Positions 48,663 through 56,785 of a stretch of 64,000 nt of DNA are shown one piece after another. The DNA is taken from the NCBI RefSeq assembly GCF_000026545.1, contig NC_011601.1, one strand, 5' to 3'. Made by a program: the position numbers and the translations under genes. The notes beneath the pieces are model-generated. The model worked only from the letters and a program-made list of their open reading frames with translations, was not told the DNA's origin and made no database searches. How positions within the stretch are numbered: the first letter of the stretch is position 1; each line of letters begins with the position of its first letter. This DNA is from Escherichia coli O127:H6 str. E2348/69 (GTDB lineage Bacteria > Pseudomonadota > Gammaproteobacteria > Enterobacterales > Enterobacteriaceae).

Positions 48663-48839
48663 ATGGATATGACCATGCAGGAATTACGGGCTACTCTAAA
48701 CCTATCCCCCAACTATCCTGAAGAAAACCACTTTCTAGATGATAATCTAACGGAAGAACTCGATAATGAGGAAATTCGACAACATCTGGGAATAGATTCG
48801 GATTGGATGGATGCAGTGGACACTAGCCAGATAATTTGA
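48663..48839 (+). CDS. Small highly acidic ORF (58 aa), not in ORF track
   Basis: Manual translation MDMTMQELRATLNLSPNYPEENHFLDDNLTEELDNEEIRQHLGIDSDWMDAVDTSQII; GGAG upstream. Confidence 0.25.
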   Translation: MDMTMQELRATLNLSPNYPEENHFLDDNLTEELDNEEIRQHLGIDSDWMDAVDTSQII

Positions 48840-49020
48840 ATCCTAACTAACAAAAACGCTGTCTGCCCTCTGTAGATTGGCGCTCTGTAGTGTTTGTCTT
48901 GCTTGCTTTTGACACCAAGTCGCCTGTAACTATGATCACGGGCAGGCATGAGCAAACAGATAACATAAAAGTCTATTATGGGAAGTGATTCAAGAAATCA
49001 TGGTAATTCATAGATAACTA

Positions 49021-49064: not shown

Positions 49065-49724
49065 TTAGTAATTGAATGATGTGCCATTCCCGTTAGTTAG
49101 ACTTTTTATGCTTTTTCTGAGGAATGGGTGTGTCATAAAACCGTTGACTCTCACACCGTAGACTGATAGAAAATTTTGGCATATAGGTATCAATTTTTTG
49201 CTATCATCCTTTGATGATTTTAAATCAATAAGTGTTGATATGTCTTGGTGTGTTATTAATTCTGTTGAAAACTTAAGCGCCAAGCTTTCTTTTGCGAAAA
49301 TTGGCGCTCGCATTTCTGCACTGAGTGATATAAGAATTGTCCTTACGCACCATGATATCCTTTTATTCATTAAGAATTTGTTTTGAATGTTATTGTTTTC
49401 AGCACATATAAAATGCAATAATTTTGTTGCAGTATCAATATCATCTGAATAATTTTCTTTGTATTTAAATGATGATGATATGCTTTCAAATAGCTCCTCG
49501 TTAAATATTGGCAAGCCCTCTTCCTTCAAGTGCAAGGCAAATAAACTCCCACCTTCCATTATTTTCTTCGCCAATGCAACAGGATACATTGCTATATTTA
49601 ACTTTCCTTTCACAATCATTTTGTAATGTAGGCCATCGTATATAGCAAACATATCCACATCAGATGCCTCAGTTTGATCTCCACGAGCAGTGCTTCCATA
49701 AATAACCAAAGATTTAATATCCAT
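49065..49724 (-). CDS. Minimal nucleotidyltransferase (pol-beta superfamily) with C-terminal helical domain (219 aa)
   Basis: GS-x10-DVD motif (LVIYGSTARGDQTEASDVDMFAIY); start 1 nt after upstream stop; ~30% GC. Confidence 0.6.
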   Translation of the reverse strand: MDIKSLVIYGSTARGDQTEASDVDMFAIYDGLHYKMIVKGKLNIAMYPVALAKKIMEGGSLFALHLKEEGLPIFNEELFESISSSFKYKENYSDDIDTATKLLHFICAENNNIQNKFLMNKRISWCVRTILISLSAEMRAPIFAKESLALKFSTELITHQDISTLIDLKSSKDDSKKLIPICQNFLSVYGVRVNGFMTHPFLRKSIKSLTNGNGTSFNY

Positions 49725-49725
49725 G

Positions 49726-50847
49726 CTAAGACCTTGATGTACATATTTTATTTATTAAAGTTGGTATTAATATACCATACCACCATACACCAATCATCAT
49801 GTTAATCAGGTGTATTGTTTCATCTAGCTGCCCAATACCACTGGTCGTGCGCTCTGTTGAATACTTCGTGTAACCTGTAAGAAGAGTTATATCAACTGCC
49901 TTCATGAATGCCCCAATAACATCACCGGATGATGTTATTGCATAGATAATCGTAAATACAATCATGATAAATAAACCAACAAATATACATCTGAATAAAC
50001 TCCCTCCCCAACCATTAATGAGACCTGATGTATTTATTATAAAATTCTCAATCACTGATTTTAACAGCAGTATGCTGTACCATAGCTTTTTTGTTACTTT
50101 TGAATTACTACGCTCGAAGAGTAGAGATTTCTGCTTAGATTTTTGTTTGCATTTGAAGTGAACCTCTACCGCCTGATAATACACTTCATCATCCGGAATT
50201 GTAGATAATGAATTAAGCAATATCTTAGAGCACTTTGTTTTAGTTCCATAGGACCTGTATTTTTGGTACTCAGGTGTTGTACCTTCTTTCTCACAAATAT
50301 CTTTATCTTGATTTACAAATAGCGCACCAATAAATTTACTTGGCTCGATATATGTATTATTTAACTTTGTTTCATTACCGGAATAAGATATATCCTTATA
50401 TGTACAATTATTAAACTGACAGTTTTCAAATGATGCCATTGAAAAACTGCATTCGATAAAGGTACAATCTACAAATTTAATATTTTTGAAATTTGCATAA
50501 CCAAAGCAAACCTTCCTGAACTCACAACTCTTAAATGTTATTCTTATTCCTTTGTTGTCACCATATATATCACACTCTGTAAATACATATCCTGAAAAGA
50601 ATTTATTTTTAAAATTTTCAGGTTTATGTTTCTTTGATAAAATCAATTTTCCTTCATAGTCTTTAGGAGTAGCTATATGCTCAGGAATAGTTAAGTCTAT
50701 CGCTACCTTTCGAGGTCCAGAGTTGTTTTTCCCGTTAATATTTAGGTCGTCAAGTCCCCATTTGATGAACTCTTCCAGATTAATGTTAGGATCATATGTC
50801 GCATCCCAATAATTTTTTATCCGATGCTGCCTGATGCTGTTGGCCAT
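49726..50847 (-). CDS. Pentapeptide-repeat protein with C-terminal two-TM, ion-channel-like domain (373 aa)
   Basis: Central tandem pentapeptide repeats; C-terminal hydrophobic helices FRCIFVGLFIMIVFTIIYAI and MMIGVWWYGILIPTLI flanking LLTGYTKY; AT-rich. Confidence 0.6.
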   Translation of the reverse strand: MANSIRQHRIKNYWDATYDPNINLEEFIKWGLDDLNINGKNNSGPRKVAIDLTIPEHIATPKDYEGKLILSKKHKPENFKNKFFSGYVFTECDIYGDNKGIRITFKSCEFRKVCFGYANFKNIKFVDCTFIECSFSMASFENCQFNNCTYKDISYSGNETKLNNTYIEPSKFIGALFVNQDKDICEKEGTTPEYQKYRSYGTKTKCSKILLNSLSTIPDDEVYYQAVEVHFKCKQKSKQKSLLFERSNSKVTKKLWYSILLLKSVIENFIINTSGLINGWGGSLFRCIFVGLFIMIVFTIIYAITSSGDVIGAFMKAVDITLLTGYTKYSTERTTSGIGQLDETIHLINMMIGVWWYGILIPTLINKICTSRS

Positions 50848-51659
50848 TTTTTAACCCACACAATTCTTTTGTTATGTATTTCAGGCTTTGTTAACGTTTC
50901 AGCCAGAATGCTGCACTGTCTGTATATACAAAAAACTGAGTATTGGTGCTATCGTCACCGGTAACTGGAACTTTTACACGGGAGCATCAACCAAATTCGT
51001 TCTTTCATTGTATCCGCGTTATACGTGCATTCAAGCTACAAGATGATGAAAAACGCCTGTGTCTATTCTAGCAAGTGAACCGTCGTGAGTTCAACAGACA
51101 CAAGGGGCTACCCTTCAACAGATCCTGCTCTATGGTTGGGGGCCCCCCTTCGCGTTATGCGTTCTACGTTCATAAATGTTCGCTATTGGCACATGTCGGG
51201 TGAAATACTTGACCAAAAACTAAAGTACACGTGCCTAAGCAAAATCTGAAACTGAGAGACTGGCTAGTCAGAGTCGAATTTTACGCAAGGACTCGGTTCA
51301 ACTCTTTGTTTGGCAGTCTCTGCTCCCAAAAATGGTTTCATGCATATGATAAACCTTTTAGATTAGATTGAGCTCAGGTCAACAATAGTGTCAGATCGAG
51401 CACAAATCAGCACTAATGATGCTACACATCGTTTAGCACATCCAATTTTAGCCACCTAAAATGCGTTCTAATGCGGATATATGTCTACCTGCAATTCTTT
51501 CACCACTTCACACCGAAAACCTCAAATATCGGCTCCTATTACGTTTTTTCTCTGGCTGGGATTTTTACACGTCGAGAATAGGGAAAACATCCCAAAAAAC
51601 GCTTACAGTATTGACGTTACGTTGCAGGTATTCTGGCTTTCAGCATTACAACGCCAATA

Positions 51660-51910
51660 TATATTATTGTTTTTAATATTGTTTTTATTTATCGTTATAA
51701 GATTGATTGTTTTTTATACATCAATTTTTCTATAAGAGTGAATCCTAAATATTGATATTTCTATGGGGTTGCCCTTCATCAAAATTGCGTTTTTTTCTAA
51801 GACTTTTGCTTTTTCATTGAGCTACGCGGATACGCCGCCTCTGGCGGCTTTCTCCCGCGACAGGTCACAATCGTCGAATGCGAGTCGCCGCCTTTGGCGG
51901 CTTTCTCGCT
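51660..51910. repeat. Origin-like region: AT-rich iterons plus duplicated hairpin next to rep
   Basis: TTGTTTTTA three times (51668-51713); CGCCGCCTCTGGCGGCTTTCTC (51832-51853) and CGCCGCCTTTGGCGGCTTTCTC (51884-51905), each a GCCGCC/GGCGGC hairpin. Confidence 0.4.
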
Positions 51911-51991
51911 ACTGACGTTTGAGGAGATTATGTTGTGGTTTAATGACTATTTTTGATTAAAAAAACCACAAATGGTCGCAAAACTCTACTA

Positions 51992-52990
51992 CTAATAGTA
52001 ACTGCGCATCCTTCTTTCTCTGGATATGTTCAAGCGCGCTTTTCTCAGCACCAGCAACAGCGGCTTACTTCTTAACAATTCACAAAGCGTTATCGCCTTC
52101 GGTGAGTACTGTCTGGCTTGCAGCGCCTCTCTACGCTCTACCTCTGCGGCTTTTCTGAGGGCTAGCGTTTGTAAGTTGTAGTATGTTTTATCGCTACATG
52201 TAACGATGATTGGTTTCACATGTGATCGTTCGGGTGAGTCAGCCAGTGTTCGCTGTATCCTGCGGCGCTGCGCTGGTCTTTTTGCTTTTGACGCTTCAAG
52301 TTTCAACTGCGTACGCCGTACTTCAAAGTATCCCGCTGCTTCTGGGGTTATGATCTGCGATGCGTGCGTTGCCCAATTACTGGATGACGCCCATACGGAC
52401 ACTGATAACCAGTCGTACGGGCTTTTTTCTGCTCTGGCATTAAACTCCTTAAGTTTAGTTTTACCTTTTGTAAGGTACGATAGGACTTCAAAACTGTAAA
52501 CGAATCTAACATCTTGATTTTTAATTAAATTATTGCGACCCTCATATGGCTGGCGCTTTACCCACGCAACCAGCAGGTCTCTCGCTATGCTCTCATCTGG
52601 AACTTTCACAATCATGTGTAAATGTAGGGTATCCTGAAACGCCGCCCACTCAACACAATATATCCACGGAATACTGCGTCTCGTAAGCGAGCGTGTGAAT
52701 GTGGTTATCGCCGTTTTCAAAGTCTCCGGCGTGATGCACTGTGCTGGGCGTAAGGTCAGCAAATATACGTTTCCACCTTGTGTAGCATCCAGATCGATAG
52801 AGAGTAGACGTCTTTTGAAGGCTCTAAGCCTGTCAATCGAAAAAGCCACTTTGCGCTTTCTGATGTGGCTGTTTGGGCTTGTTTTCTTTCTTTGCTTGTT
52901 TTGGTTGCGTGGTTTCATGTAAGCGTCAACAAATGCACCACGCTTGCGCACGATGTATTGTTCAGCGCGATCCCCGTGATATAATTTCAT
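51992..52990 (-). CDS. Rolling-circle-type (HUH) replication initiator (332 aa)
   Basis: HUH-like motif TLHLHMIVKV and downstream Tyr motif VLSYLTKGKTK; basic C-terminus. Confidence 0.5.
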   Translation of the reverse strand: MKLYHGDRAEQYIVRKRGAFVDAYMKPRNQNKQRKKTSPNSHIRKRKVAFSIDRLRAFKRRLLSIDLDATQGGNVYLLTLRPAQCITPETLKTAITTFTRSLTRRSIPWIYCVEWAAFQDTLHLHMIVKVPDESIARDLLVAWVKRQPYEGRNNLIKNQDVRFVYSFEVLSYLTKGKTKLKEFNARAEKSPYDWLSVSVWASSSNWATHASQIITPEAAGYFEVRRTQLKLEASKAKRPAQRRRIQRTLADSPERSHVKPIIVTCSDKTYYNLQTLALRKAAEVERREALQARQYSPKAITLCELLRSKPLLLVLRKARLNISRERRMRSYY

Positions 52991-53042: not shown

Positions 53043-53432
53043 TTACAGGTACTTTTCCCCAATTGCTTGCGTTATCTCTGAGAACGACGATTCAGACACG
53101 TCCCCTCTGATCCCCCTAAGTATTCGTAACGCAGACTCAACCTTGCGTAATATCTTCGTGTATCTTGCATTGGTGCGCCATATACAAAGCATTCCCGCTT
53201 TGTCGAGTCGGTATTTTACCAAATCCCTTTCAGGAATGTGATATGCACCATCCATGCGCTGTTCGACGGGGATACCCCAGTCATTACGTAACAGAGTTAA
53301 AACACGGCTGCGCTCATGTCCACCAGCAGAAGATAAGTACCTGTCAAATTGGGTTGGGGTGAGGCTATGACCATCTAACAGAATATCGCGGATCTGTGCG
53401 GTAGCTTGGTTTCGTGTCAATGCTTTCATCAT
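53043..53432 (-). CDS. Hypothetical protein (130 aa from ATG at 53432)
   Basis: Track ORF (231 aa) trimmed because its N-terminal third overlaps the AlpA-like gene in another frame. Confidence 0.4.
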   Translation of the reverse strand: MMKALTRNQATAQIRDILLDGHSLTPTQFDRYLSSAGGHERSRVLTLLRNDWGIPVEQRMDGAYHIPERDLVKYRLDKAGMLCIWRTNARYTKILRKVESALRILRGIRGDVSESSFSEITQAIGEKYL

Positions 53433-53439
53433 TTGCCCC

Positions 53440-53622
53440 TTACAGAAACCGGGCTGCGAATTGGTCGAGATCTGCAACCAACCATACTCTGCGCTTTCTG
53501 CCGTTGATAGACTGGACGGTGCAAGTCGGAAAAGCTGGAATGTAACGCTTATATTGGTAAAAGCGTGATAGACAAACGCCAAGATATTGCGCGGATTCTC
53601 GCGCGGTAAGGTAATTTTCCAT
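53440..53622 (-). CDS. Small AlpA/Xis-like HTH protein (60 aa)
   Basis: LTARESAQYLGVCLSRFYQYKR HTH-like segment; sits between int and rep. Confidence 0.45.
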   Translation of the reverse strand: MENYLTARESAQYLGVCLSRFYQYKRYIPAFPTCTVQSINGRKRRVWLVADLDQFAARFL

Positions 53623-53824
53623 AATAACGATCCATGTTTATGTTTTGTCCACATTATGGGGCATCCTGCCCCATAAATACTGTACATAATTTTTTCAATT
53701 ATCCCAAGTCTACAACCAAAAAATCTCCCGCGTAGCAATCCCTATAGTTCGCCCTTGTTCTGTTTCAATTTCATATACGCTAGCTCCACACAAGCTGTAT
53801 CGCCACCATAATTTCGATCTCCGG

Positions 53825-55087
53825 CTAATTACAGTTACTATATTTTTTCATGGGGACGACGTTGTAATCTTCACCACTTTCCAGCGTAACCAGCAGTTCA
53901 GCCCACTGCTCCAATGCAGCTTTTCTCTCTTCAAAATAGTGGTGGCGATTATAAATACCTTCAACACCGGGTATTTTATGATTAAGACATCTTTCAGCTA
54001 TTACAGGATCAATCCCCAATGCTGCCATCTGGGTACGCATCGTACGTCGTAAGTCATGAATGCTAAATGGCTCAACATCAGGCATCTCTTTTAATACTGA
54101 AGGCAAAACCATATTCAGCGTACTGCGACTAACGTGCGATGTAGTCCTCCCCCTCCTTGCCGGAATTAACCAGCGGCTATTACCAGCAAACAGACGGATT
54201 TCCTTGATCCATTCGATAACAGGATCAGCTAGCGGGATGTCTATCTCCTCACCATTTTTTGCTCGATCAGCAGGAAAATGCCAAACTTTTTCATCAAGAT
54301 TAAACTCCGACCACTCGGCAGCGCATAATTCCATCTTGCGAACCCCTAGCGCGAGAATGATTTTAAACGTTAACTCATTCTCTCTGCTAATACCCCGCCC
54401 CTTACGCAGAGCTTTAAAAAACATTACTAGCTCCTCACGCGTGAGTGCTCGCTTACGCCCTTGCTCTTTCCCGCCTGCATCTTTTGAACTAAATGAAATC
54501 GCGGGGTTTACTTCAATCATCCCGCGTACAACAGCATAATCAAAAAGGCGCTTAAGCATTCTTAGCACGTCATTCGCAACGGTAGGAGAACCGCGCTCTA
54601 ATACATTCTGCAAAACATAGTCGATATGTTTCGGGCGTACATCCTCAATTTTCATTTTGCCGATAGATGCGACAATGTTTTTTTGTAAGCTACTGCGAAA
54701 TAACTCCGGATGCTTGTAAGTGGGTTCTATCTGCCGCGAGTAATACTCAGCGGCTAAATCTGATACTCGTTTTGCGTTCTTTTGCGCTTCAATCTTTTCC
54801 AATGCTTCAGCTTTTCGCTTCTGTTTCTCTCCTGCTACGTCATAACCAAGAGAAACACGGGCTGCCAGTTCTCTGGCGACCTCTCTTGCTTTTGCAAGAG
54901 AGAAATCAGTATACGAACCAATCAGCACAACTCGCGATTTTCCGCCTAACTTGTAACGAAAGCGCCAGTTAGGGAGTTTGTCACTTTTCCTAAATCGAAG
55001 ATAAAGCCCGTTTCCGTCTGCCTTACCTTCGAATCTCTCATCGGATTTAATCCAAGCTTTGATTTGTAGGTCAGTTAATTTTGCCAT
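53825..55087 (-). CDS. int: Tyrosine integrase (P4-type)
   Basis: MAKLTDLQIKAWIKSDERFEGKADGNGLYLRFRKSDKLPNWRFRYK arm-binding N-terminus; HDLRRT...Y catalytic region; ATG at 55087 with GGTG RBS. Confidence 0.8.
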   Translation of the reverse strand: MAKLTDLQIKAWIKSDERFEGKADGNGLYLRFRKSDKLPNWRFRYKLGGKSRVVLIGSYTDFSLAKAREVARELAARVSLGYDVAGEKQKRKAEALEKIEAQKNAKRVSDLAAEYYSRQIEPTYKHPELFRSSLQKNIVASIGKMKIEDVRPKHIDYVLQNVLERGSPTVANDVLRMLKRLFDYAVVRGMIEVNPAISFSSKDAGGKEQGRKRALTREELVMFFKALRKGRGISRENELTFKIILALGVRKMELCAAEWSEFNLDEKVWHFPADRAKNGEEIDIPLADPVIEWIKEIRLFAGNSRWLIPARRGRTTSHVSRSTLNMVLPSVLKEMPDVEPFSIHDLRRTMRTQMAALGIDPVIAERCLNHKIPGVEGIYNRHHYFEERKAALEQWAELLVTLESGEDYNVVPMKKYSNCN

Positions 55088-55111
55088 TACGAACACCTGA
55101 ATACGTTACAT

Positions 55112-55206
55112 CGGGTACGCAAAGCCATCGTCACCGTGTACCCAATTTCTAACACCGTGTACCCAAACCGCAAGAACCTCTCTTTGGGTACACTTTTGTG
55201 TACACA
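55112..55206. promoter_or_regulatory. Cluster of GTAC-core direct and inverted repeats upstream of int
   Basis: CACCGTGTACCCAA twice (55132-55145, 55153-55166, 21-bp period); TGGGTACACttTTGTGTACACA (55185-55206), also found at 47924-47945. Confidence 0.4.
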
Positions 55207-55245
55207 ATATCTTGCATCTTTATGAACTGTTATGACAACTAGTGA

Positions 55246-55312: not shown

Positions 55313-56785
55313 TTATTTGCTTTTCTTGATATGCTTCATCAAACGCTTACGCTTGCGCATCTGGGTTGGCGTCAGGGTATTACGCTTGTTCGCATACGGG
55401 TTTTCCCCTTCTTTGAACTGAATACGAATCGGCGATCCCATTACGTCCAGCGATTTGCGGAAGTAGTTCATCAGGTAACGCTTGTAGGAATCCGACAGGT
55501 CTTTCACCTGATTACCGTGAATCACCACAATCGGCGGGTTATAACCACCGGCGTGGGCATATTTCAGCTTCACACGACGACCGCGTACCAGCGGCGGTTG
55601 GTGATCTTCAACAGCCATCGTCATGATGCGCGTCAGCATAGAGGTCCCCACACGACGGGTGGAGCTGTCATACGCTTCACGTACTGATTCAAACAGGTTA
55701 CCAACACCACTGCCGTGCAAGGCAGAGATAAAGTGCACACGAGCAAAATCGATAAAACCCAGACGGAAGTCCAGCGTTTCTTTCACCTGCTCTTTCACTT
55801 CCTGGCTCAGGCCATCCCACTTATTCACCACAATGACAAGTGAGCGCCCACTATTGAGAATAAAGCCCAGCAGCGAGAGATCCTGATCGGAAATACCTTC
55901 GCGGGCGTCAATCACCAACATCACCACGTTGGCATCTTCAATGGCCTGCAACGTTTTGATTACCGAGAACTTCTCTACCGCATCGGTGATTTTGCCGCGT
56001 TTACGTACGCCAGCGGTGTCAATGAGCACATACTCACGTCCGTCGCGTTCCATTGGAATGTAGATACTGTCACGCGTCGTGCCAGGCATGTCGTAAACAA
56101 CAACGCGCTCTTCACCAAGAATACGGTTAGTGAGTGTAGACTTACCTACGTTCGGGCGACCCACAATCGCCAGTTTGATCGGCAGACTTTGCGGGTCGAA
56201 GTCGTCTTCCTCTTCTTCTTCGCCGTTCTCTTCCGCTTCAAATTGCGCCCAGTATTCGGCGTCTTCGTCGACTTCTTCTTGCGGTGCGAGATCTTCCATC
56301 CACGGCAGCAGCACGTGCTCCAGCAGACTTAATACGCCACGACCGTGAGACGCGGCGATCGGGTAGATTTCACCTAAACCAAGCGCGTAGAAATCAACCA
56401 CTGCCTGATCGGGATCCAGACCGTCAGTTTTGTTTGCCACCAGGAAGGTCGGTTTTTCACGGGAGCGCAGATGTTTGGCAATCGCTTCATCTGCCGGCAT
56501 AAGGCCCGCGCGCGCATCCACCATAAACAGTACGACGTCCGCTTCTTCAATCGCCAGCAGCGACTGTTCCGCCATGCGGGTTTCTACACCGTCTTCTGTG
56601 CCATCAATCCCGCCGGTATCAATGCAGATAAACTCACGGCCTTCAATTTCCGCACGACCGTACTTACGGTCACGAGTCAGACCCGGGAAATCCGCAACCA
56701 GCGCATCTCGGGTGCGAGTTAGACGGTTAAATAACGTGGATTTTCCTACGTTAGGGCGCCCGACAAGCGCGACCACAGGTACCAT
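55313..56785 (-). CDS. der: Ribosome-associated GTPase Der (EngA)
   Basis: Two GTPase domains (GRPNVGKST twice); 490 aa from [17 protein letters not shown]. Confidence 0.95.

Follow-up and report, generated by a model that had tools for sequence, protein, structure and literature searches.

What does a strongly acidic open reading frame (ORF) of 58 amino acids do on the strand opposite to every other gene of a small genomic island, next to an anti-phage system? This question is raised by a 64,000-nucleotide stretch of the chromosome of Escherichia coli O127:H6 str. E2348/69 (NC_011601.1; hereafter the window), where the 3′ end of der harbours a 7.45-kb island; the empty site is seen in strain A25. 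A sequence-only reading of this DNA had singled out the ORF, here named ORF58, as unannotated, and had interpreted it as a possible DNA mimic, anti-restriction or anti-defence factor, or regulator. Comparison with its counterparts in related islands indicates that ORF58 is a bona fide protein-coding small gene, probably an independently expressed unit, and places it in the backbone of the island, at the border of a slot in which defence cargos are exchanged. Its product may act as an acidic decoy or regulator that binds a partner protein.

Coding status and expression signals of ORF58

ORF58 occupies positions 48663-48839 on the plus strand, stop codon included, and is supported by the ORF listing, by purifying selection, by a match to PHROG 35119 and by coding sequences (CDS) called in sister islands. 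It starts with ATG and its product, MDMTMQELRATLNLSPNYPEENHFLDDNLTEELDNEEIRQHLGIDSDWMDAVDTSQII, contains eight aspartates and seven glutamates versus two arginines and no lysine, for an isoelectric point of ~4.05 and a net charge of −13. No other of the 135 ATG-initiated ORFs of 45 to 80 aa in the window is as acidic. The ORF listing and this composition bear out the earlier description of a strongly acidic 58-aa ORF whose ATG has an upstream GGAG; its orientation within the element is also as described, since all other island genes lie on the minus strand and ORF58 falls within the island as bounded by its attachment (att) sites. The length of ORF58 alone is not significant: when the 506-bp AT-rich gap is shuffled, 16% of the resulting sequences contain an ATG-initiated ORF as long or longer (58 aa or more). 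What raises ORF58 above chance is the conservation of its frame across related islands.

The same 177-nt frame is present at the der site in the sister islands of T28R, AH50, PS2Canimalfeces12 and E. albertii. The three der-type allele groups differ by no indels and show a ratio of nonsynonymous to synonymous substitution rates (dN/dS) of 0.17-0.30, with dS up to 0.6. Relatives also occur in a second island family located at a tRNA-Arg gene (argW), whose two limits are marked by an identical 23-nt copy of the tRNA end; when all lineages are considered, with nucleotide divergence up to 40% and dS up to saturation, dN/dS ranges from 0.12 to 0.36. Eight alleles compared codon by codon have 58 codons each and zero indels. 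The third codon position holds 17 of the 28 differences (binomial p=0.003), the synonymous excess is highly significant (Fisher's test, p=9e-5), the amino-acid replacements are conservative (D/E, I/L/V, S/T), and the five alternative frames contain stops in every allele. The sequence-only reading had made its case depend on the frame being conserved in homologous elements, and the frame proves to be open in every related island. An exhaustive HMMER search that included distant small relatives gave family lengths of 58-80 aa, and these distant relatives have two motifs in common, ELRxxLxLSPxYPExN and LGIxxDWM. In two near-identical relatives (L021 760-1002 and L022 6205-6429), the C-terminal tails differ after the conserved core (...WMESLTTF) through a frameshift, which suggests that the functional protein probably ends near residue 58-60. 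A scan of the island against Rfam matched nothing relevant.

ORF58 is separated by a 104-bp divergent intergenic region (48559-48662) from the gene for a 199-aa regulator; comparison of the alleles shows that this length is invariant in all der-type alleles and that 9-18 of the 104 positions differ between them. The GGAG element (48646-48649, +), read directly from the sequence, resembles a Shine-Dalgarno (SD) motif, lies 13 nt before the ATG and is kept in the T28R and AH50 alleles. The upstream alignment, read by eye, points to a putative −10 hexamer TACAAT (48612-48617, +), which is TATAAT in the AH50 allele, together with a weak −35; a strict sigma-70 consensus scan called no promoter in the 104-bp region. 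Between the putative −10 and the ATG lie two copies of GTAAGnAnTTAC (48625-48636 and 48649-48660, +), 24 nt apart, visible as direct repeats in all der-type alleles, which are a candidate operator or 5′ untranslated region (UTR) element. In the argW-type allele (L027), AAGGAG precedes the ATG by 7 nt, a promoter-like site with an extended −10 is found, and an intrinsic terminator directly follows the stop codon. Strong hairpins also follow the stop in T28R (z=-7.1) and AH50 (z=-5.1). The translation signals that had been claimed upstream of ORF58 do exist, then, weakly in the E2348/69 allele and in canonical form in the argW-type allele.

Island backbone, cargo slot and distribution

We compared the island with its sister islands using blastn. 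Backbone homology stops at 48855-48859, 16-20 nt after the ORF58 stop, and resumes at 51374-51387, ~600 bp downstream of the gene for a rolling-circle-type Rep; these two positions delimit the cargo slot. Across the islands, cargo borders fall either 16-20 nt past the ORF58 stop or at the ORF58 start. In der-type islands the slot contains the Hailong system (E2348/69), PDC-M43 (T28R), a CBASS cyclase with a two-transmembrane (2TM) effector (AH50 and E. albertii), or an ATPase with a DUF2357 protein (PSS-16). In argW-type islands it contains a SIR2/ThsA-like system, an HNH system, an uncharacterised 470-aa protein or an uncharacterised pair of 825 and 330 aa. The copies of ORF58 found beside CBASS and PDC-M43 are 79-91% identical to that of E2348/69, and those beside SIR2, HNH and the uncharacterised cargos are 47-51% identical. 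ORF58 is found alongside six or more unrelated cargos, which may face either way, and is therefore neither Hailong-specific nor cargo-specific.

Five genes are common to the der-type and argW-type islands, namely those for the integrase (Int, 26% identity), a 60-aa AlpA-like protein (AlpA60, 72%), a 129-aa protein (p129, 59%), Rep (30%) and ORF58 (51%), and in both types ORF58 lies inside the att-bounded island. By these comparisons ORF58 is a gene of the island backbone, the last one before the swappable defence-cargo slot. Counting from the distal end of the island, ORF58 consistently comes second, and it is divergent from the terminal gene. The identity of the latter depends on the family. 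In der islands it encodes the AlpA-type regulator of 199 aa and, in a third lineage located next to osmY (L021/L022), a homologous protein of 166 aa; in argW islands, whether from E. coli or Klebsiella, it encodes a serine recombinase of 208 aa. The 166-aa protein is 22% identical to the 199-aa regulator (E=5e-7) and is paired with a 45%-identical relative of ORF58, and the pair formed by the resolvase and ORF58 is invariant in the sampled argW islands of both E. coli and Klebsiella.

The PSS-16-type islands have a different junction, in which homology ends three codons into ORF58 and the cargo lies downstream in the same direction. Alignment of this type (L004 7781-8234) with positions 48559-48671 of the window reveals that the ORF58 promoter/5′-UTR region is kept; GGAG reads GAAG in it, and of the gene itself 8 codons remain. 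The ORF58 promoter may have been co-opted there for expression of the ATPase and DUF2357 cargo.

Rousset et al. (2022, PMC9122126) described, in the hotspots of P2 phages and P4 satellites, conserved backbone genes that flank exchanged defence systems, and Hochhauser et al. (2023, PMC10121019) reported 'integrase-only' defence islands in E. coli. Like them, the ORF58 island has a backbone gene bordering an exchange slot, an integrase and no recognisable transfer genes. Unlike P4, it carries a rolling-circle Rep and has no match to the alpha primase, Sid, Psu or delta in Pfam or PHROGs, and on this gene content it is not P4-like beyond its integrase. The layout also resembles that of the Pseudomonas tmRNA islands I23, I44 and I55, which are moved by a jumbo phage and combine defence cargo and an inovirus Gp2-like protein with IntY and AlpA at opposite ends (PMC12595487). 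In the ORF58 island, too, the integrase and an AlpA-domain gene mark the two extremities, and the genes between them include those for a Gp2-like rolling-circle Rep and for defence cargo. The Pseudomonas islands measure roughly 23-55 kb, going by the element names, whereas those studied here are 7.5-9.5 kb, belong to Enterobacteriaceae and reside at der, argW or osmY; the description of I23/I44/I55 mentions no small acidic gene (PMC12595487). We also considered PIMEs as the island type and rejected this assignment, as PIMEs are 22 kb with trbJ/trbL and repA (bioRxiv 10.64898/2026.01.12.698999).

A DNA search matched the argW-type allele region in 554 of 5,426 complete E. coli genomes (~10%), O157:H7 included; the argW backbone was matched in 540 complete E. 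coli genomes and der-type ORF58 in 11. A word-seeded protein search that returned 7 clusters understates the family and was superseded by the DNA search. According to a cluster look-up, the exact E2348/69 protein is present at NCBI on 96 contigs as 'MULTISPECIES: hypothetical protein', and relatives are found on more than 1,000 contigs, including those of Klebsiella pneumoniae and E. marmotae, with no functional name. The family includes the 'hypothetical protein' clusters WP_024043941.1, WP_063856356.1, WP_000409799.1 and WP_000409798.1, and ORF58 matches PHROG 35119 (no assigned function) over its full length, residues 1-57 aligning with profile positions 1-57 of 58 (E=5.4e-14). These entries have no function, context or name, and record neither the backbone position nor the link with a hotspot that emerge from our analysis. 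The NCBI Prokaryotic Genome Annotation Pipeline (PGAP) annotates ORF58 in other alleles as 'hypothetical protein' and calls no CDS for the E2348/69 allele. The label 'unannotated' is thus accurate for RefSeq E2348/69 and for three other genomes with the same allele but not for the protein at large, and it reflects an inconsistency of PGAP for this allele rather than a new family. By tblastn, no copy of ORF58 was found in 50,697 phage or 72,556 plasmid records. Anti-restriction and anti-defence genes usually spread on phages and plasmids, and the absence of ORF58 there is atypical of them.

On present evidence, ORF58 does not define a new kind of system; it is a conserved hypothetical gene whose location is informative. 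It provides a conserved border gene for the defence slot of a poorly described family of mini-islands with a rolling-circle Rep, and its sequence and the Rep-side border can serve as a pair of anchors for harvesting slot contents. Among the contents with no assigned role are PDC-M43, the 470-aa protein and the 825+330-aa pair, the last two also having no PADLOC match. The gene for the 470-aa protein (L028 10422-11834 in O157:H7 86-24; 10364-11776 in L029, L031 and L033) occurs in O157:H7, in other E. coli and in at least one other Enterobacteriaceae genome (Klebsiella), and the 825+330-aa pair (L025 390-3856) adjoins an ORF58 relative. Because of the other contents of the slot, both are candidate new defence genes. 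Four argW islands (L029, L032, L035 and L036) carry a second large cargo beyond the resolvase, a 1630-aa Type ISP restriction enzyme (~3908-8800 in L029), suggesting that the distal end of argW-type islands may hold a second insertion slot. For the reference enteropathogenic E. coli genome, our results also amount to an annotation fix, given that RefSeq E2348/69 misses both ORF58 and the gene for the AlpA-like 60-aa protein.

Possible functions of the ORF58 product

ORF58 belongs to no Pfam, NCBIfam or PADLOC family, and PHROG 35119 is its only match in PHROGs. Searched at E<=0.1 against Pfam, PHROGs, NCBIfam and PADLOC, neither ORF58 nor any of 28 family members matched ArdA-, Ocr- or KlcA-type families. 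The part of the earlier interpretation that holds is that ORF58 is a real, conserved coding gene of a mobile island; membership in anti-restriction, DNA-mimic or anti-defence families finds no backing in its sequence. Two Pfam matches were dismissed as chance, Skp1 (21.4 bits versus a cut-off of 22.3, in 6 of 28 members) and WYL_3 (11 of 28 members, all sub-threshold). A degenerate helix-turn-helix (HTH) was also considered: the C-terminal segment NEEIxxxLGI aligns to helix 2, the turn and helix 3 of the island HTHs, but the hhalign probability is 1.2% and matches to PDB profiles have E>=0.03, and this reading was dropped. Searches for HTH families in Pfam gave isolated sub-threshold matches to Sigma70_r4_2, GerE and HTH_24, in one member each of the 28, and in place of a basic recognition helix, the segment that follows LGI in ORF58 is DSDWMDAVD, acidic and devoid of lysine. 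The layout does not correspond to a type II antitoxin bicistron, as there is no co-directional partner ORF and a terminator (L027) or strong hairpin (T28R and AH50) follows the stop, nor to an acr-aca operon, ORF58 being monocistronic with a terminator in L027 and its HTH or recombinase neighbour being divergent, not downstream. The Cocleimonas locus L024 was discarded as a relative: its motif LGIDPDWMEA lies inside a 371-aa kinase-like ORF, which we take to be AnmK-like.

An alignment of 28 sequences shows invariant residues at M1, R9, L12, Y18, N22, G43, I44, D47 and W48, which apart from R9 are hydrophobic or aromatic, two strongly conserved motifs, ELRxxLxLSPxYPExN and NEEIxxxLGIxxDWM[DE]A, and a variable middle. 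A short protein whose folding takes place on a partner would be expected to show this pattern. AlphaFold2 predicts, with low confidence, four short helices for ORF58 (8-sequence alignment; predicted local distance difference test (pLDDT) score 59, predicted template modelling (pTM) score 0.24). The island encodes proteins of opposite charge, the regulator (+7), Int (+17) and Rep (+37), versus −13 for ORF58. Our preferred reading, which we hold at a little under an even chance of being right, is that ORF58 is an independently expressed small backbone protein of mini integrative islands that acts as an acidic partner-binding decoy or regulator. The specific mechanism, titration of a basic nucleic-acid-binding partner by an acidic decoy, is a more tentative proposal. 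ORF58, with its short helices of low confidence, would fold onto this partner and titrate it by protein-protein binding, neither as an enzyme nor by acting on DNA itself. A protein-binding role is proposed because the product is very acidic, has no basic surface, is predicted to form short helices and contains two strongly conserved motifs. This partner would be involved in regulation or recombination and come either from the switch of the island itself or from its helper, and ORF58 would thereby tune island induction, excision or gene expression. The term 'regulator' in the earlier interpretation is plausible in light of the divergent pairing with a terminal DNA-binding gene, a pairing kept in the osmY-type lineage (L021/L022), where the regulators are only 22% identical. 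If the decoy mechanism is correct, ORF58 would represent a very small new regulator or counter-defence factor of mobile islands.

Several observations weigh against this reading. The divergent neighbour of ORF58 is an AlpA-type protein in one island family and a non-homologous resolvase in another, which makes this neighbour less likely as a conserved target. ORF58 is absent from the PSS-16-type der sublineage, represented by 7 complete genomes, and is therefore dispensable for island maintenance. Decayed argW islands devoid of Int, AlpA or an intact Rep, such as those of O157:H7, still hold ORF58, a retention that hints at a target in the host or in an invader. In the E2348/69 allele itself, the 13-nt SD spacing is rather long and poor, and the terminator hairpin has been lost at the cargo junction (z=-0.7). 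When the regulator and ORF58 were fused through a (GGGGS)6 linker and modelled with AlphaFold2 from a paired alignment of 6 sequences, too few for an informative result, the AlpA HTH alone was confident, the ORF58 part had a pLDDT of 35-44 and there was no sign of a complex. Finally, a literature search for ribosome-profiling (Ribo-seq) or small-protein data in E2348/69 yielded no usable evidence of transcription or translation.

The persistence of ORF58 in decayed islands, without island partners, would fit an anti-defence DNA mimic that is expressed on arrival in a new cell and neutralises a host DNA-binding barrier, whether a restriction enzyme, H-NS-type silencing of the AT-rich island or a CRISPR-Cas surveillance complex. 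Known DNA mimics with anti-restriction or anti-defence activity include Ocr, ArdA, T4 Arn, phi29 p56 and the acidic anti-CRISPRs AcrF2 and AcrIIA4. Like these, ORF58 is small, extremely acidic, encoded by a mobile element and adjacent to an HTH gene, as anti-CRISPR genes often are; its own promoter and terminator make it an independent unit, its family is narrow and fast-diverging as is typical of anti-defence genes, and the island is AT-rich (41% GC versus 50% for the window). Unlike them, it has no sequence or profile similarity to any anti-restriction or anti-defence model (Pfam, PHROGs, PADLOC) and no copy in the phage and plasmid records searched, and its AlphaFold2 model is too uncertain to be read for a DNA-like charge array; moreover, its HTH gene is divergent instead of forming an acr-aca operon, and one island sublineage does without ORF58. 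We consider this explanation quite unlikely. More doubtful still is its extended form, in which ORF58 would be an 'entry' protein of the mobile element, an acidic decoy under its own promoter directed against restriction, CRISPR surveillance or H-NS-type silencing of AT-rich cargo, and hence a counter-defence or anti-silencing gene of the island beside its defence slot; its conserved position would in that case also offer an anchor for mining new defence systems in several hundred Enterobacteriaceae genomes. The target could also belong to a helper. ORF58 would then bind a protein of a helper phage or conjugative element (a repressor, or a packaging/terminase small subunit) and induce or redirect the helper, like Eps of P4 or Ppi/Rpp of phage-inducible chromosomal islands (PICI). 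This is consistent with the minimal, satellite-like gene set of the island (int, AlpA and Rep, no transfer genes), with the phage-mediated movement of similar Pseudomonas islands encoding IntY, AlpA and an inovirus Gp2-like Rep (PMC12595487), with the semi-core status of ORF58 in two island families and with its moderately fast divergence (51% identity versus 72% for AlpA60). On the other hand, the island has no known helper and no record of excision or packaging, ORF58 has no similarity to the Eps, Ppi, Rpp, Sid or Psu families, it is kept in immobile, decayed islands and it is missing from one island sublineage. Exploitation of a helper is unlikely on balance.

The two other alternatives fare much worse. 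ORF58 lies only 225 bp from the stop codon of halB, in convergent orientation, and its product, being acidic, might conceivably imitate the oligo-DNA ligand of Hailong (PMC13276650), which would make it an accessory or regulator of this system, for instance an inhibitor restraining the HalA channel or the HalB product. Yet related copies stand beside CBASS, PDC-M43, SIR2, HNH and uncharacterised cargos, the backbone/cargo junction at 48855-48859 separates ORF58 from halB, and Hailong is described as a two-gene system (PMC13276650; NCBIfam models). An accessory role in Hailong is hardly credible, and by these comparative data it is essentially refuted. It would be equally far-fetched to regard ORF58 as non-functional at the protein level, its DNA being conserved for another reason, for example because it encodes an RNA, serves as promoter/operator of the regulator or as a transcription insulator, or anchors the recombination that exchanges cargo. 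The breakpoints of cargo exchange do coincide with the ends of ORF58, ORFs of 58 codons are not rare in shuffled AT-rich gaps, and there is neither a PGAP call in E2348/69 nor expression data from our literature search. This view is contradicted by the low dN/dS in every comparison, at up to 40% nucleotide divergence, by the third-position excess, absence of indels in 8 alleles and single open frame, and by the canonical SD and terminator of the argW alleles, with no Rfam match.

Other genes and sites of the der island

The att cores of the island are a copy of the der 3′ end at 47842-47860 (left), defined by comparison with the A25 empty site and the right end, and the der 3′ end itself at 55313-55333 (right); no tRNA is involved in this integration. 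Besides ORF58, the island has seven genes. The 199-aa terminal regulator divergent from ORF58 (47959-48558, −), which PGAP calls an HTH regulator, consists of an unassigned N-terminal domain, a basic linker and a C-terminal AlpA-type HTH (Pfam Phage_AlpA, residues 145-191, E=1.7e-8). Its family could not be deepened, a single 90% cluster being found. An imperfect 39-nt direct repeat (TGGGTACACnnTTGTGTACAC...; 47924-47962 and 55185-55223) is found 60-130 bp inward of the att cores at either end of the island, and its copies are probably arm-type binding sites of the integrase. The latter is a P4-type tyrosine integrase (53825-55096, −) with the Pfam domains Arm-DNA-bind_3, Phage_int_M and Phage_integrase.

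The cargo of E2348/69 consists of halB (49065-49724, −) and halA (49726-50847, −), both convergent with ORF58. Hailong comprises the HalA ion channel and the HalB nucleotidyltransferase (Tan et al. 2025, summarised in PMC13276650). HalA scores 295 bits, above the NCBIfam cut-off, and PGAP names it 'anti-phage Hailong system effector HalA'. HalB is named only 'nucleotidyltransferase domain-containing protein', presumably because its NCBIfam score of 187.7 bits falls under the cut-off of 190, leaving the pair half-labelled in RefSeq. A near-consensus sigma-70 promoter-like site, TTGACA-16-TATGAT (11 of 12 matches), is located in the cargo-side junction at 48909-48936 (+) and points into the 3′ end of halB, antisense to Hailong.

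Beyond the slot, the 332-aa Rep (51992-52990, −) contains an HLHMIV motif and matches Pfam REP_ORF2-G2P with 27.1 bits (cut-off of 27.8); it is 30% identical (E=1e-38) to an argW-island protein named by PGAP 'rolling circle replication-associated protein'. Downstream of Rep, ~600 bp of non-coding backbone are conserved (51374-51991). This segment includes two copies, 53 nt apart, of the GC-rich 22-nt hairpin motif CGCCGCCTyTGGCGGCTTTCTC (51833-51854 and 51886-51907), a candidate island replication origin or terminator pair.

The 129-aa core protein (53043-53432, −) has no assigned function and is 59% identical to a 128-aa protein of argW islands; we verified its start site. The AlpA-like 60-aa DNA-binding gene (53440-53622, −), whose product is 72% identical to an argW-island 'DNA-binding protein' and gives weak PHROG excisionase/HTH matches, is unannotated not only in E2348/69 but also in T28R. 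At this place PGAP calls a 203-aa 'hypothetical protein' (53043-53654, −) that looks over-extended, as the homologues are 128-129 aa long with a start ATGATG right after TAA, and the upstream part of this call overlaps the 60-aa gene in another frame. Outside the island, E2348/69 carries an adhesin/SinI/SinH (inverse autotransporter) block and an IS4 fragment (41508-47833) between yfgJ and the left island end, whereas yfgJ directly abuts the island in T28R and PSS-16. The der-xseA interval is therefore a composite variable region.

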